Positions 32,589 through 62,031 of a stretch of 64,000 nucleotides of DNA are shown one piece after another (positions within the stretch are counted from its first letter, which is position 1; each line of letters starts with the position of its first letter). The notes beneath the pieces were generated by a model. That model ran no database searches. It was not told the origin of the DNA and saw only the letters and a list, made by a program, of their open reading frames with translations. The stretch comes from Eubacterium sp. (lineage in GTDB: Bacteria; Bacillota; Clostridia; Lachnospirales; Lachnospiraceae): assembly GCA_024690665.1 (NCBI GenBank), contig JAILOU010000018.1:3928-67927 (forward strand), in the 5' to 3' direction. A program made the position numbers and the translations under genes.

Positions 32589-32663
32589 TCGCGATTTCTC
32601 CTGCTTGATTTCTTTGCATACATTATACTAAACCTCTATATTTTTTTAAAGTTTCACATCGTC

Positions 32664-32791
32664 AAGACTCGCTCGCGAGTCTTGCGCGCCGGATTCGGGT
32701 CTGCTTCAGCAGACAAATTCCTGTCCGAATCCGTGCGCATCCTCGCGGAGCGTTTAACTCAGTCGGAGCTTATACCCCGACTGAGCTAAAC
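32664..32791. repeat. cluster of nested palindromes (REP-like element)
   Basis: AAGACTCG-ctcg-CGAGTCTT; CGGATTCGG...CCGAATCCG enclosing GTCTGCT-tc-AGCAGAC; CTCAGTCGG...CCGACTGAG. Confidence 0.65.
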
Positions 32792-58231: not shown

Positions 58232-58888
58232 TTACTCTAATACCTCAGCTTCTAATGCTTCATATTCTTCTTTGGTAATATCCTGGTCATTCTTATAGTA
58301 TTTTTTATTTCCGTCGTCTTCCCAGTCTTCCCACCCAAAGTTGAAGGAATCTACAATATCCAAATTGCCATCATACTTTGTTAATTCATAAGTACATCTG
58401 CCTTCATGCGAAGTATCACTATGGACAATCCAGTATGCATCCTTGTATTTTGTATAATCACAGACTGCAGTCGTGCCTTCTCCACGAGCAAAGCAAACAA
58501 CCTTTCCGTCCTTGCAGTCAAAGCAAGTGTAACCATAGATTTCATTCTCCAGGATAAATTCCACTTCACCATCATTATCCAAATCAACCGGATCTGCCAC
58601 AGTCACATATAAATTAGGATCAATTTCATCTTCTGCCGTTCCTTCAAACTGGAAATAGCTTGCATCCATAGATTCTCCATCGCTATCGGCAATCTTAACT
58701 TCAGCCTTAATTGTCCCGGCACAAAATGCTTTAAACAACTCTTCCGGACTCATCTCGCTTGATGTCTCATCGGAAGAAGTACTTTCAACTTCCACTACAT
58801 CAGCAGACGATTCATCGCTTGCAACTTCTGCTTTTCCACATGCTGTTAACAGTCCCATACACATCAAAACACATATTACTCTTTTCAT
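58232..58888 (-). CDS. acidic lipoprotein of unknown function
   Basis: Lipobox LTAC; DLDNDGEVE DxDxDG-type motif. Confidence 0.75.
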   Translation of the reverse strand: MKRVICVLMCMGLLTACGKAEVASDESSADVVEVESTSSDETSSEMSPEELFKAFCAGTIKAEVKIADSDGESMDASYFQFEGTAEDEIDPNLYVTVADPVDLDNDGEVEFILENEIYGYTCFDCKDGKVVCFARGEGTTAVCDYTKYKDAYWIVHSDTSHEGRCTYELTKYDGNLDIVDSFNFGWEDWEDDGNKKYYKNDQDITKEEYEALEAEVLE

Positions 58889-59044
58889 AACTCTTCATCC
58901 TCTCTTTCACATTACTCAATAAAATGTTCGTGTGTTTTTCATATTACTTACATCTCCTACCCCTGTCAAGAATTTTTATCAAAATCATGATTATTTCGTT
59001 ACTCCACTACGCGTCTTGTTTCATTTGTGATTTTTTTAAACAAT

Positions 59045-59495
59045 AATCAATCCGTAAATGAAGCTCGCATGAAAGAATGCCATAAGATTCTGAAAAAAAA
59101 CGGGCGCCTTATTAGCGGCAATGAAAGAAGATCATCCGTTCCTTACATCAGACTCCGACTTTTGCTTCGCAACTGTCTTATCGCTGACCGATAAAAGTGT
59201 GGATCAAATCGTCGAAGAACTTGAGACTACCTTTCAGAATTTAAAACCCAATTTCAAATATCACGATAATGCCATTCACTCTCTCAGCCAGGTGCTGACA
59301 AGCTATGCCGGCGACCCTGACGACAAAGCTGAGCGTTCTCTTACCCTCTATGAAGCGCTGAGAGTTGCAGGTATAAAATACGGCAAAGAAACAGAACTTG
59401 CTTCTCTCGGAACGCTGCTTCGCGTAAAGATGGCTCCGGATGTTCTGGCTAAGGAGATTGCCGAAACATCCGACTATCTAAAGAGCAAGCTATAA
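59045..59495 (+). pseudogene. DUF4003-like gene remnant (internal deletion/frameshift, truncated ends)
   Basis: NQSVNEARMKECHKILKKNG is out of frame with MKEDHPFLTSDSD...; no RBS or full N-terminus; stops 3 bp from the convergent nuclease gene; family recognised from memory. Confidence 0.55.
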
Positions 59496-59498
59496 ATT

Positions 59499-60287
59499 TT
59501 ATCTTAGATATTTATCCACTAATTTCTTCACAACTTTCGAATCCAAGGTTTCCTGCGACGTCTCAAATGTTAGAATTAATCGTTCTCCCGGATATATCCC
59601 ATTCTTTTGATAATTGTTGATCTTTTTTATCGCATTTTGCACATAGTCCGCTTTATCCATCATACCCTCATGTTCCCAATATAATTCTTTTCTGTATTTT
59701 TTTGAGAAAAATGTAAAATCAGGATAAACAACTCCATATCCTGCTAAATTCAATGGTTTTTCGTACTTATACAAAATATCATTTCGATAAAAGTAGTCCG
59801 CAAGAATTTTTTCTGATTTTGACCTTACACGTTCTCCTTTTTCTGTTAGAATCACCGGCGTTCCCTCTCGAAAACCTTTCCCAAAATAGGACTCCGTATA
59901 CCACCGTTCCTTCAATTGGTTATAGGTTGGTTCTACCGGTATTATCAATTTCTTTCTCTCCGGGTGCAATTTCTCAAACAGTCTCTCCACCTCATCATCA
60001 CTATAACCTTCCAAACATCTTGTAATAAGCTTAACTCTTTTTTCTGTGGCTTTAATGACAGAACTACAATAGGCTTTTTGTGCTAATAGCTGCGGCAACT
60101 CCTTATTATCCTTCTGAATATACTCTCCATACTTGTTATCTTTGCAATGATAATATCTGACCTTACCATTGTCGACTGAAATACGAAGCCTTCCTTCAAG
60201 TGTTAGATTGTTTTCTTTTTTCACCTTTGCAAGAATGCTTTCTAAATATTCTTTCTCTTTTAATAACATTTCCTTTAATCCATTCAA
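59499..60287 (-). CDS. orphan PD-(D/E)XK nuclease (Vsr/DUF559-like C-domain) with uncharacterised N-terminal beta and helical region
   Basis: TTG start with AAAAGGAGG RBS; GERVRSKSEKILAD, YKYE, YPDF, YWEHEGMMD; visibly AT-richer than neighbours. Confidence 0.75.
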   Translation of the reverse strand: MNGLKEMLLKEKEYLESILAKVKKENNLTLEGRLRISVDNGKVRYYHCKDNKYGEYIQKDNKELPQLLAQKAYCSSVIKATEKRVKLITRCLEGYSDDEVERLFEKLHPERKKLIIPVEPTYNQLKERWYTESYFGKGFREGTPVILTEKGERVRSKSEKILADYFYRNDILYKYEKPLNLAGYGVVYPDFTFFSKKYRKELYWEHEGMMDKADYVQNAIKKINNYQKNGIYPGERLILTFETSQETLDSKVVKKLVDKYLR

Positions 60288-60365
60288 TTAGTTTCCTCCT
60301 TTTTATGAATTATGTTTTCGTGGGATTTTAAGTCTCCTTGCCCTAGCCTACGCTTTGCTTAGAGG

Positions 60366-60948
60366 CGGGGGCATCTGGCGCCCGCTATTTGATTGACCTG
60401 CTTTTGAGATTTAGAGTTTTGGGGCATCTGATGTGGATCTTGTGATTGACTCACATTGAGAATTTTAGATTTCGAACCATCTAATACCAGCGATTTGATT
60501 GACTCATATTGTGATTTTCAGATTCGGAGTCACCCTGCACCGGCGATTTGATTGACTCTCATTGTGATTTTCAGATTCTGAGCCATCTAATACCGGCGAT
60601 TTGATTGACTCTCATTGTGATTTTCAGATTTCGAGCCACCCAATACCAGCGATTTGATTGACTCATATTGAGATTTTCAGATTCGGAGTCACCCCGCACC
60701 AGCGATTTGATTGACTCTCATTGTGATTTTCAGATTCGGAGTCACTCCGCACCTGCGATTTGATTGACTCTCATTGTGATTTTCAGATTCGGAGTCACCC
60801 CGCACCGGCGATTTGATTGACTCTCATTGTGATTTTCAAATTTCGAGCCATCCAATGCCAGCAATTTGATTGACTCTCATTGTGATTTTCAGATTCTGAG
60901 CCATCCAATACCAGCGATTTGATTGACTCATATTGAGAATTTTAGATT
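60366..60948. repeat. tandem array, 11 units, exact 53-bp period (about 35-nt conserved core plus 18-nt variable segment)
   Basis: GATTGAC anchor at 60391, 60444, 60497, 60550, 60603, 60656, 60709, 60762, 60815, 60868, 60921; core GCGATTTGATTGACTCTCATTGTGATTTTCAGATT. Confidence 0.95.
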
Positions 60949-60964
60949 TTGGTTCTACCAAATA

Positions 60965-61006
60965 TAAATAAACAGAAACCCGGAAACCAGATGCCTGGTT
61001 TCCGGG
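60965..61006 (-). terminator. rplM-rpsI intrinsic terminator
   Basis: CCCGGAAACCAG-N4-CTGGTTTCCGGG 12-bp stem followed by TTTCTGTTTATTTA on the minus strand. Confidence 0.85.
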
Positions 61007-61059
61007 GATATAATCTTTGATATTTCTCGAAGACAACAATATTCTGCATCCGCAGATGA

Positions 61060-61455
61060 TTATCTCTTTGAGAACTGAGGTGCTCTACGTGCACTCTTGA
61101 GACCGTATTTCTTACGTTCTTTCATACGTGGATCACGAGTTAAGAATCCAGCCTTCTTTAATGTAGGTCTGTAATCTGCATCTGCCTGAAGTAAAGCACG
61201 TGAGATACCGTGGCGGATAGCTCCTGCCTGTCCGGTAAAGCCGCCTCCCTTTACATTGACAATAACATCAAACTTGTTAGCTGTATCTGTAGCAACGAGT
61301 GGCTGACGAACAACTACCTTTAATGTCTCTAATCCTAAATACTCATCAATATCTCTCTTATTGATTGTAATTTTTCCTGTTCCAGGTACTAAATAAACTC
61401 TGGCGATTGATTTTTTTCTTCTACCAGTTCCATAATACTTTGCTGTATTTGCCAT
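61060..61455 (-). CDS. rpsI: 30S ribosomal protein S9
   Basis: [29 protein letters not shown]...PQFSKR. Confidence 0.98.
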
Positions 61456-61471
61456 TGAAATCTACCTCCTA

Positions 61472-61900
61472 TTAAAATGTTAACTCTTCCGGCTTCTGAG
61501 CTGCATGCTTGTGATCAGGTCCTGCGTATACGAATAACTTAGTATACATCTCTCTTCCTAAAGGTCCCTTTGGAAGCATTCCCTTAACTGCATGTTCGAT
61601 TACTCTCTCAGGATGCTTTGCTAACATTTCCTTTAAAGTAGTCTCTTTCATACCACCAACGTAATCTGAATGATGATAGTAAATCTTCTGGTCTAACTTC
61701 TTACCAGTTACTTTAATCTTCTCAGCGTTTACAACGATTACATAATCGCCTGTATCGATATGTGGTGTATAAATAGGTTTCTTCTTTCCTCTAAGTACAT
61801 TGGCTACTTCTGAAGCAAGACGACCAAGAGTCTTGTCTGTAGCGTCAACAACATACCATTTTCTATCAATTGTTGCCGGGCTGGCCATAAATGTTTTCAT
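61472..61900 (-). CDS. rplM: 50S ribosomal protein L13
   Basis: Start trimmed to MKTFMA after GGAGG; [27 protein letters not shown]. Confidence 0.98.
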
Positions 61901-62031
61901 TGATTTCCTCCTAGAAAATTGTCGCGAGGTCATTATGGAAATGTCCGAAACCATAACTTTCCTCAAAAGTTTCTTCTATATAAAAATGCGATTTCGGGGC
62001 TAATGAAATGCATTTTCAGTCCTTGTCAGAC
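61901..62031 (-). ncRNA. rplM 5' leader (candidate L13 leader)
   Basis: About 130-nt UTR with hairpin TCAGTC...GACTGA and the ATTAGCCCCG segment typical of Firmicute L13 leaders. Confidence 0.5.

Follow-up and report, generated by a model that had tools for sequence, protein, structure and literature searches.

Lachnospiraceae genes for Vsr-like nucleases adjoin helically phased tandem arrays that look like their DNA docking sites

The locus described here raises the question of whether a gene for a 262-aa nuclease and the tandem array upstream of it belong together and, if so, what the array does. Both lie in the window, a 64,000-nucleotide stretch of a Eubacterium sp. genome. The first-pass annotation had proposed that gene and array form one functional unit, in which the array would either yield unit-length RNAs that guide or neutralize the nuclease or serve as a DNA binding platform. 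We found no publication in the literature that describes such a nuclease/array pairing. Our analysis favors the binding platform: the pair looks like an undescribed protein with its docking sites, and not like an RNA-guide or RNA-antitoxin system. What is new here is the quantization of the array period at 10.6 bp together with a fixed half-site spacing.

The array lies upstream of the 262-aa gene in the gene's own orientation, and most of its original description held up on reanalysis. It comprises eleven units with an exact 53-bp period that begin 78 nt from the start codon (earlier put at about 80 bp). Identity at lag 53 is 0.81, compared with 0.19–0.28 at lags 26, 27, 50–52, 54, and 55, and TRF returns a period of 53 with 9.5 copies, 85% matches, and 0% indels (score 641), in keeping with the reported lack of net indels. 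The 35-nt core said to be identical in four units is exact at 60543, 60596, 60702, and 60755, and the two units nearest the gene are indeed the most decayed, with the nine others agreeing with the consensus at 46–50 of 53 positions. The 18-nt segments, however, had been taken as eleven unrelated variables, and they are really two related types (four A-type and five B-type segments) plus the two decayed units; they include one of two inverted half-sites. Read in gene orientation, a unit consists of TGACTC (GGCTC in B-type units), 21 nt, GAGTCA, and 20 nt. Exact copies of the dyad module listed in Table 1 also start at 60659, 60712, and 60765. Outside the array, the genome has no TGACTC/GAGTCA pair (0.03 expected per spacing), and the array is single-copy in this 2.58-Mb, 87% complete assembly.

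Table 1. Features of the nuclease gene, its array, and their surroundings (window coordinates unless residues are given)
Feature	Position	Strand	Details
Convergent, truncated, frameshifted DUF4003 gene	59027..59495	plus	downstream boundary
124-aa ORF of the DUF4003 remnant	59121–59495	plus	profile positions 126–247 of 296
262-aa nuclease gene	59499..60287	minus	ORF; TTG start
N-terminal helical hairpin with inserted beta-hairpin	residues ~1–135 of the 262-aa protein		AF2 model; beta-hairpin at 33–48
C-terminal Vsr/EDxHD-like PD-(D/E)XK nuclease domain	residues ~146–262 of the 262-aa protein
Non-repeat spacer, array to start codon	60288..60365	minus	78 nt
Ribosome-binding site GGAGGAA	60293..60299	minus	5 nt ahead of the TTG start; read from the sequence
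Tandem array	60366..60948	none	11 units with an exact 53-bp period, equal to five 10.6-bp turns
Two decayed gene-proximal units	60366..60471	none	consensus matched at 31 and 34 of 53 positions
One complete dyad module	60500..60532	none	TGACTC, 21 nt, GAGTCA (plus strand)
Intrinsic terminator of rplM–rpsI	60979..61006	minus	12-bp stem, 8 G–C pairs, T-rich tail
rpsI	61060–61455	minus	Pfam Ribosomal_S9
rplM	61472–61966	minus	Pfam Ribosomal_L13

The gene stands free amid housekeeping genes, with no intron or intein homing context. Its neighbors in the window are rpsI, rplM, the DUF4003 fragment, and genes for a lipoprotein, a methyltransferase, and an SCFA transporter. The rpsI terminator hairpin forms the upstream boundary of the module, the array beginning ~30 nt past it, and is the only strong terminator-like site found; it sits upstream of the array, and no such site was found in the spacer at 60288–60365. 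Within the units and between array and gene, the promoter search gave only weak consensus matches at chance frequency, and Rfam at permissive thresholds gave only chance-level matches over 58800–61600. The first-pass annotation had noted no adjacent cas, Nop-domain, reverse transcriptase, or transposase gene, and we likewise found none nearby or among the recurrent neighbors at homologue loci. Among homologues of at least 45% identity with enough upstream DNA, rpsI and rplM are the conserved upstream neighbors of this subfamily (20 of 43 loci). The contexts that recur across loci are those of housekeeping genes (after rpsI, comEC, ppdK, and guaA), not mobile or defense islands. A recent insertion of the module behind rpsI would explain only part of the picture: the nearest congener lacks the module, but many genera have this position filled.

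The protein itself has no family name. It matches zero Pfam or NCBIfam families, Vsr and DUF559 included, at E values up to 1; searches of PDB sequences with the single protein and with a profile returned nothing relevant, PHROGs returned nothing, and Foldseek gave zero PDB matches at E 0.001 or better. The AF2 model is a confident one (pLDDT 93.7), and its C-terminal domain (146–262) aligns with the catalytic domain of I-Bth0305I (3r3p_B) at Z 8.9 and an rmsd of 2.7 over 90 residues. This is the top row of the comparison and the sole non-coiled-coil structure match at that level, followed by TnsA and Bax1 (both Z 7.8). In PADLOC, the C-terminus of PDC-S68 matches residues 139–260 at 1.2e-27, and PDC-S69 (1.5e-06) and HEAT_CxxC_PD-DEXK (4.7e-06) share the homologous C-terminal nuclease domain. 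The I-Bth0305I and PDC-S68 matches uphold the earlier assignment of a Vsr-like PD-(D/E)XK domain. Across 85 sequences of 26–75% identity, E159, D190, H206, D211, and E242 are invariant. Their order and spacing are Vsr-like when set against the E...D...H/N...H...D set (PMC3239194), as a comparison of sequence columns and not of superposed side chains. The nuclease active site appears to be intact.

The structure models also predict that the protein is a symmetric homodimer. The homodimer prediction score is 0.66, compared with 0.00 for the best of three controls. Of 30 proteins solved as same-chain pairs, 20 reach the mark used for this score, whereas only 1 of 23 proteins known as single chains does so. 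Contact agreement between model runs is at least 97%, with a partner pLDDT of at least 88.

The linkage of gene and array extends far beyond this genome. The check proposed at the outset, whether arrays consistently adjoin homologues of the gene, was carried out on homologues from genomes and metagenomes, with a lag identity of 0.7 or more counted as strongly periodic. By this measure, the upstream regions of 86 of 148 homologue loci are strongly periodic, compared with 8 of 178 control regions, and none of those 8 controls has a period within the observed classes. The remaining 62 of the 148 upstream regions fall below 0.7, and these weaker regions peak at the same lags. Homologues down to ~26% identity bear their own upstream arrays, although from one subfamily to the next these have unrelated sequences (63 sequence families among 84 arrays). 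The half-sites track protein clades, and paralogues that reside in the same genome have different arrays. Placement is upstream at most loci and on both sides of the gene at some (for example, L008). Taken together, this comparative sequence evidence supports the proposal that gene and array are one functional unit.

The units of many relatives' arrays are 90–97% identical. In a transition-width test, the gene-proximal edge decays more gradually than the other (31 arrays vs 11, Wilcoxon p 0.0017), although the loci are phylogenetically related, so that this and the other p-values overstate the evidence. The family comprises 10,022 clusters at 50% identity (E up to 0.001), or 3,801 at E up to 1e-30; it is common in gut and rumen Lachnospiraceae, and neither Pfam nor NCBIfam has a model for it. 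When metagenomes were scanned with a single paralogue, zero relatives came up, and the rerun used an alignment.

Array periods are confined to a few classes. Only ~44, 51–54, 62–64, 72–75, and 84–85 bp were seen, along with multiples at 105–108, 125–128, and 189 bp. When the lattice constant was scanned from 7 to 16 bp, the peak fell at 10.6 bp (mean cosine 0.89), which is one turn of B-DNA. Fifty-nine of the 63 array families lie within 1.5 bp of a multiple of 10.6, and with the 53-bp class removed the count is 24 of 27, where the chance for any one family is 0.28 (binomial 8e-11, for families that are not fully independent). Switches between period classes recur on the protein tree, including one from 53 to 63 inside the rpsI-linked clade. 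While the period steps, the dyad does not: every one of the 21 TGAC-type arrays has a TGAC-to-GTCA offset of 29 or 30, at periods of 52–54 and 63–64 alike, and in the clade of this gene the linker alone grows, by ~10 bp, between periods 53 and 63. In the A/T dinucleotide spectrum, the helical harmonic ranks first in 20–25% of arrays compared with ~8% expected. This hints at curvature but does not decide the matter, since the null differs from one harmonic to another.

A paralogue in the same genome offers a second view of these arrays. Its 72/73-bp arrays occupy 12 intergenic loci, and in all of them the offset from TGTAAC to GTTACA is 31, with the sequence between the half-sites varying by array. 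Unit types recur across different arrays of this set, and one array is a mosaic. At one array locus, the flanks are 74 bp apart in a congener and 941 bp apart here. The first-pass annotation had named a repeat that occurs genome-wide independently of the gene as grounds for refutation. The array of this gene shows no such spread, being single-copy; the repeat type of the paralogue does, at its 12 loci.

We consider it somewhat probable that the dimeric nuclease encoded downstream has its DNA binding sites in the array, as dyads set in phase one after another. Each 53-bp unit would present two inverted half-sites, TGAC and then GTCA 29–30 nt on, at a distance set by the geometry of the dimer. 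With units every five B-DNA turns, neighboring dimers would sit on the same face of the helix and could assemble cooperatively into a nucleoprotein complex over the upstream region of the gene. The nuclease would bind the array, and the bound array may autoregulate the gene and dock, or restrain, the nuclease. Nicking or cutting at the sites could drive the gain, loss, and exchange of units and, in paralogous lineages, the spread of arrays to other intergenic sites. The outcome would be a partnership of repeat plus cognate enzyme resembling that of REP/BIME and RAYT but built on an unrelated enzyme. This reading draws on the observed gene–array linkage, helical quantization, fixed half-site spacing, and clade-tracking half-sites, and on the modeled Vsr-like fold with its invariant residues and the predicted dimer. 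As to mobility, the single-copy state of this gene's array and the count of one to three arrays per genome in relatives (1, 3, and 2 in close relatives) weigh against that part.

Several known systems resemble the proposed arrangement in part. In the REP/BIME–RAYT systems of Proteobacteria (PMC2817692, PMC3116915), short inverted repeats alternate in orientation at regular intervals and adjoin the gene of a cognate nucleic-acid enzyme, which is apparently vertically inherited in housekeeping surroundings; the paralogous lineage described above further shares with them a repeat type at ~12 intergenic loci with units common to several loci. The enzyme there is a Y1 HUH transposase, whereas the 262-aa protein gives zero Pfam matches to this TnpA-REP type and has a Vsr-like PD-(D/E)XK fold. 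REP/BIME repeats are tight, G+C-rich hairpins dispersed genome-wide, in contrast to half-sites of 4–10 nt lying 20–25 nt apart in an array that, for this gene, is single-copy. The arrays described here are also long, strictly periodic, and helix-locked, unlike REP/BIME.

For the enzyme, the closest parallel is I-Bth0305I, a Vsr-like homodimeric double-stranded DNA endonuclease with a footprint of ~60 bp (PMC3239194). Both are two-domain proteins, and the homodimer that was measured there is predicted here; its target is pseudopalindromic, and its footprint is similar in size to the 53–85-bp units of the arrays. The N-terminal domain differs, however, and the likeness to I-Bth0305I and Vsr does not extend to a sequence-level match with Vsr, DUF559, or PDB entries. 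EDxHD homing endonucleases reside in introns or inteins, whereas this gene is free-standing in the chromosome with many tandem presumed sites upstream. Ssn, a GIY-YIG enzyme that acts on single-stranded DNA and recognizes the NTS repeat of Neisseria (PMC11893778), is likewise a small site-specific nuclease paired with a genomic repeat, but its repeats are dispersed and not arranged in tandem phased arrays adjoining the gene.

Iterons and operator arrays share with these loci direct repeats at whole helical turns beside the gene of the presumed binder, with a repeat sequence that changes among relatives while its spacing is kept. The arrays here differ in lying in a chromosomal housekeeping context with no plasmid or replicon origin, in having units 5–8 turns long with a dyad in each, and in having a partner with an apparently intact nuclease site. 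A search of 72,556 plasmids turned up no homologue over the full length. What plasmids do encode is the nuclease domain by itself, fused to ATPases, as the C-terminal part of AAA-ATPase and RecD-like helicase proteins. The PADLOC candidates PDC-S68, PDC-S69, and HEAT_CxxC_PD-DEXK similarly have in common with the 262-aa protein only the last ~120 residues, and share neither its N-terminal dimerization domain nor its array nor its genomic context. For PDC-S68 and PDC-S69, the match covers the last ~125 positions of 1,221-aa profiles, and the full-length architecture is not shared.

A bolder version of the docking idea, which we regard as speculative and unlikely, is that gene and array make up a new class of module that is complete in itself and works at the level of DNA. 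The nuclease, site-specific and potentially lethal, would be stored in a silent state along its helically phased array, where it would form a cooperative filament; the array would then be a docking lattice or "DNA antitoxin." A change in DNA topology or occupancy, for example when a phage attacks, DNA is damaged, or the locus is lost, would release the enzyme, which would also propagate its sites. If true, this would be the first REP/RAYT-like self-replicating repeat system run by a PD-(D/E)XK nuclease in Firmicutes.

Among the other explanations, one takes the array for an RNA element. In a type III-like toxin–antitoxin system, array RNA would be cut into units that neutralize a toxic nuclease, as ToxI does for ToxN. 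The layout fits this: throughout the family, the array directly precedes the gene and shares its orientation, and in ToxIN, CptIN, TenpIN, and the AbiF system of C. difficile (PMC12373285) a noncoding tandem array, specific in sequence to each gene, likewise lies immediately upstream of the nuclease gene. The sense strand is also mRNA-like, being purine-rich in 90% of arrays (mean 0.63), and arrays often end just 23–50 nt ahead of the start codon; for these reasons, the array is probably transcribed as a leader. Given that probable transcription, an RNA role is possible, a point that counts against the DNA-site reading. Finally, the nuclease domain is common to PADLOC candidate defense proteins, and the array in this window folds better on the sense strand (z −3.85 against shuffles) than on the antisense strand (−1.01), with arm pairing in B-type units kept only via G–U pairs on the sense strand.

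The folding signal of this one array also counts against the DNA-site reading, as do inverted arms that are individually significant in only 27 of 84 arrays. Across arrays, no strand-specific RNA wobble or folding signal was found. In 42 arrays, the median folding z was −1.91 for sense and −1.74 for antisense (p 0.29). Wobble-type arm mismatches number 41 on the sense and 30 on the antisense strand, beside 99 other mismatches. Directly flanking the TGAC/GTCA cores, wobble pairs number 17 on the sense and 7 on the antisense strand in arrays that are non-independent, a weak hint in favor of the sense strand on which we place no reliance. A blunt perfect-stem search of TRF consensus units gave a mean arm of 6.0 compared with 4.5 in shuffles. 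The notion that every unit is a hairpin is not established, as the scored inverted-arm test is individually significant in only those 27 of 84 arrays; the offsets between TGAC and GTCA told more than these stem searches. Arms of merely 4–10 nt with 20–25-nt loops themselves fit an RNA antitoxin poorly.

Other evidence also argues against the antitoxin explanation. The fold is that of the Vsr/EDxHD/TnsA-like double-stranded DNA endonucleases, and in Pfam, NCBIfam, and PADLOC the protein is unmatched by the ToxN, CptN, TenpN, and AbiF families. The window holds no terminator between array and gene. Type III units are 34–45 nt long, compared with helix-quantized units of 53–85 bp here, and steps of 10.6 bp have no RNA rationale. 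The loci lie in conserved housekeeping contexts and not in mobile or defense islands, and the paralogue has arrays at 12 loci without a toxin gene. We therefore judge the type III explanation to be improbable; the unit-length RNA reading of the first-pass annotation fares badly on the endonuclease fold, the missing terminator, and the lack of a strand-specific signal across arrays.

Equally improbable, in our estimate, is that the array is a satellite-like by-product, nonfunctional tandem DNA that arises beside the gene, for example through nicking and repair by the nuclease or through slippage, and that persists by hitchhiking without serving the cell or the protein. Unequal crossing-over typically leaves doubled and tripled periods, mosaics, and decayed units at array edges, and the weak periodicity of the 62 of 148 homologues below 0.7 would also suit such an origin. 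Against it, the half-sites and their spacing are conserved while the intervening sequence changes, the period keeps to the helical lattice through many class switches, and the array has kept its place relative to the gene among proteins that are 26–75% identical.

There is still less to commend a nuclease-independent leader or insulator in cis, for instance one that buffers transcription or supercoiling behind highly expressed operons and to which host factors attach, in the way that gyrase or IHF binds BIMEs. In its favor, the arrays lie just behind rpsI, ppdK, guaA, and comEC in the same orientation, and they show a helical register and a modest A/T harmonic enrichment (rank 1 in 20–25% vs 8%). 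Yet array sequence tracks the clade of the adjacent nuclease and the arrays of co-resident paralogues differ, which points to a cognate partner and not a general host factor; such arrays are also missing from control intergenic regions.

The guide-RNA reading (CRISPR or TIGR-Tas type, with the variable segments as spacers against foreign DNA), for which the constant core and more variable 18-nt segment of this one array had spoken, is already contradicted by the data and retains almost no probability: the segments are two related types that include a half-site, relatives' units are 90–97% identical in many arrays, the proposed search for phage and plasmid matches found none for the array in 50,697 phage and 72,556 plasmid records, and no cas or Nop-domain gene was found.

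If the array is indeed a row of sites for its nuclease, these loci would represent a new kind of protein–DNA partnership and, beside REP/RAYT, a second independent example of repeats that live with a cognate enzyme. Nature would here have supplied dozens of orthogonal pairs, each a dimeric nuclease with its dyad site, whose spacing rule can be read from the sequence; they would be of use in studying how DNA is recognized cooperatively and as starting material for site-specific nucleases or binders. The arrays could also act as strain markers. The same partnership would account for a class of intergenic arrays of strict periodicity at which metagenome assemblies break up; contigs of 1–3 kb have many of the homologues at their ends.

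The unit count and exact period that the first-pass annotation gave for the repeats upstream of the nuclease gene are reproduced when the sequence is cut into units. Self-identity is 0.81 at lag 53 vs 0.19–0.28 at nearby lags, a 35-nt core is identical in four units as reported, and TRF finds zero indels between units. A strong rplM–rpsI terminator is followed, after ~30 nt, by the start of the array; 78 nt separate the array from the gene start. The two gene-nearest units are indeed the most decayed: of their 53 positions, 31 and 34 agree with the consensus, vs 46–50 in the others. One correction concerns the 18-nt variable segments: they comprise two related types (A and B) plus two decayed copies, and one half-site of an inverted pair lies within them. 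Read in the orientation of the gene, a unit consists of TGACTC (GGCTC in B-type units), 21 nt, GAGTCA, and 20 nt.

Locations of the genes and repeats discussed (C, contigs of the window's own genome, the window lying on C9 at offset 3927; L, loci fetched from other genomes)
Feature	Location	Details
Tandem array	window 60366-60948	11 units of exactly 53 bp
Nuclease gene	window 59499-60287, minus strand	262 aa; GGAGGAA ribosome-binding site ahead of start
Truncated DUF4003 gene	window 59027-59495	abuts nuclease gene
AAA-ATPase gene, nearest congener	L175:2172-3392	in place of module, downstream of rpsI
Paralog	C19:45666-46451	sole other family member in own genome; 29% identical
Paralog's 72-bp array	C19:45380-45588	arms TTTGTAACT and AGTTACAAA
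11 further paralog-type arrays	C2, C7 (twice), C15, C19 (twice), C24, C27, C34, C49, C53	
CCCCC...GGGGG arrays	C12:2581-3092, C12:60254-60630, C19:56593-57025, C27:74182-74480, C48:5219-5859	
63-bp array	C20:23567-24058	7.8 copies, 95% matches
360-388-bp repeat	L179:1748-2107, L180:1156-1526, C15:49205-50294	beside two 72/73-bp arrays
G+C-rich multi-hairpin element, ~130 bp	window 32661-32791 (C9:36588-36718)	congener copy L175:621-753
~142-bp repeat	e.g. C13:1-141, C2:102697-102836; also L176:11-153	at many contig ends of own genome

We examined relatives of the 262-aa protein, which has no family in Pfam or NCBIfam. A 90%-identity collection contains 1,841 matches, mostly unnamed Lachnospiraceae proteins, and clustering at 50% identity gives 10,022 clusters at an E cutoff of 0.001 and 3,801 at 1e-30. 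In the relatives' genomes, homologs as distant as 26–29% identity each have their own, differing tandem array upstream. We then fetched 160 further loci from genomes and metagenomes, taking as the measure of periodicity the best self-similarity lag within 700 bp upstream of each gene. Strong periodicity was found in 86 of 148 upstream regions vs 8 of 178 control regions of the same loci, and the best lags of most weakly periodic upstream regions coincide with those of the strong ones. Gene and array are a pair throughout the family, in agreement with the earlier proposal that they form one unit. By sequence, the 84 clear arrays group into 63 families unrelated to one another, and arrays differ between paralogs of one genome. 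Close proteins have half-sites in common, with TGAC/GTCA around the window gene and TACG-, ACCGT-, or CCGAC-type half-sites in other clades. The gene-side decay first seen in the window array extends across arrays, the edge toward the gene showing the more gradual decay in 31 arrays vs 11 (p 0.0017). That the repeats are a satellite without function seems unlikely to us.

Strong periods occur at 44, 51–54, 62–64, 72–75, and 84–85 bp, with multiples at 105–108, 125–128, and 189 bp; none of the strong periods lies between these classes. When lattice constants between 7 and 16 bp are scanned, a sharp peak appears at 10.5–10.6 bp (mean cosine 0.89). With the dominant 53-bp class excluded, 24 of 27 array families are within 1.5 bp of n × 10.6 (binomial 8e-11, which overstates the evidence because array families are related through their genes). 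The protein tree contains several period-class switches, including one from 53 to 63–64 within the rpsI-position clade of the window gene. Across the 21 TGAC-type arrays, TGAC and GTCA are always offset by 29 or 30, independent of period, and in 63-bp arrays the additional 10 bp lies wholly within the linker between dyads. Such a lattice with a fixed offset is expected if dimers recognize a dyad whose geometry is fixed and have to occupy the same DNA face as their neighbors; we know of no RNA rationale for steps of 10.6.

An AlphaFold2 model built from an 85-sequence alignment (pLDDT 93.7) places residues about 1–135 in a long helical hairpin into which a beta-hairpin is inserted; this part resembles only generic coiled-coil and dimerization modules. 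Residues 146–262 are modeled as an alpha/beta domain whose top solved match is the I-Bth0305I catalytic domain (Z 8.9), with Bax1 and TnsA next (Z 7.8). For this C-terminal domain, the I-Bth0305I match upholds the first-pass assignment to Vsr-like PD-(D/E)XK nucleases. The invariant residues E159, D190, H206, D211, and E242 are Vsr-like in order and spacing. The homing endonuclease I-Bth0305I belongs to the Vsr-like dsDNA endonucleases, is homodimeric, recognizes a pseudopalindromic target, and has a ~60-bp footprint (PMC3239194). PADLOC candidates PDC-S68 and PDC-S69 and plasmid ATPase/helicase proteins have the same domain at their end. Folding of two copies scored 0.66 vs 0.00 for the best of three controls; the mark for this score was attained by 20 of 30 solved homodimers and by 1 of 23 solved monomers. 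Runs had at least 97% of their contacts in common, with pLDDT of at least 88, and the predicted interface runs along the N-terminal and C-terminal helices. This prediction supports, rather than shows, a symmetric homodimer.

With slightly better than even confidence, we favor a partnership at the DNA level, in which the array would be a phased lattice of putative dyad sites for the adjacently encoded, predicted-dimeric nuclease. Autoregulation or docking could follow from such a lattice, as could nuclease-driven array turnover. Full-text literature searches found no description of this nuclease/array pairing. An RNA antitoxin resembling those of type III systems is improbable in our estimate, although arrays often end 23–50 nt before the start codon and are therefore probably transcribed. 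The gene-sense strand is also purine-rich in 90% of arrays (mean 0.63, like coding sequence), sense RNA of the window array folds better than shuffles (z −3.85) while antisense does not (z −1.01), and B-type arm pairing is kept only via a G–U pair on the sense strand. Across arrays, however, wobble-type mismatches are balanced between the strands (41 sense, 30 antisense, 99 other) and folding is alike on both strands (z −1.91 vs −1.74, p 0.29). In addition, the arms are short with loops of 20–25 nt, a terminator between window array and gene is absent, and the enzyme is predicted to fold like DNA endonucleases. Units that are often 90–97% identical, and zero matches of the window array in phage and plasmid collections, exclude guide-like spacers; a guide array is extremely improbable in our estimate.

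The locus is neither a defense island nor a mobile element. About half of homologs at ≥45% identity, from several genera, lie directly behind rplM–rpsI; positions in other clades are behind comEC (with holA convergent), ppdK, or guaA. A host-factor leader or insulator appears quite improbable. Integrase, transposase, cas, and RT genes do not recur near homolog loci, and phage records, with three weak partial matches, and plasmids contain essentially no full-length homologs. The module is not fixed at its position: in the nearest congener, whose rplM–rpsI DNA is 94% identical, homology extends precisely to the rpsI stop codon, beyond which an AAA-ATPase gene lies instead. Its protein starts MIKRDKYL, contains GKS, and has two paralogs in the window's genome. 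The DUF4003 gene, on the opposite side of the module, is missing roughly its first 125 residues, and its start is overlapped by a short out-of-frame ORF beside an A-run; it is therefore a pseudogene.

The window repeat is single-copy in its own assembly (2.58 Mb, 87% complete), and relatives contain 1, 3, and 2 arrays of their own type per genome. Arrays of the paralog's type (period 72–73 bp) occupy 12 intergenic loci in the same genome. Their arms, spacing, and period recur, with a half-site offset of 31 in 12 of 12, and the sequence between half-sites is specific to each array. Certain unit types recur across these arrays, one array is mosaic, and the flanks of one locus are 74 bp apart in a congener vs 941 bp in the window's genome. 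These comparisons indicate that arrays are gained, lost, and exchanged, a likeness to REP/BIME–RAYT systems.

Further repeats were observed in this genome and its relatives. The CCCCC...GGGGG hairpin arrays are a third family (periods 41, 103, 114, 124, and 230), for which no cognate family member was found in the assembly; in a same-genus relative (L008), a 28%-identical family member has CCCCAA/TTGGGG arrays on both sides. The 63-bp array on C20, with no family member beside it, resembles one adjoining a family member in another genus (L007). The ~130-bp element has at least 15 copies in the genome, 96–98% identical to the congener copy, and in Rfam only a sub-threshold L2-Alphaproteobacteria leader match (20.4 bits vs gathering 37.8). 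The ~142-bp repeat probably represents the end of an IS or MITE whose multiple copies break up the assembly. The 360–388-bp repeat is tandem on C15 and has several copies in a congener.
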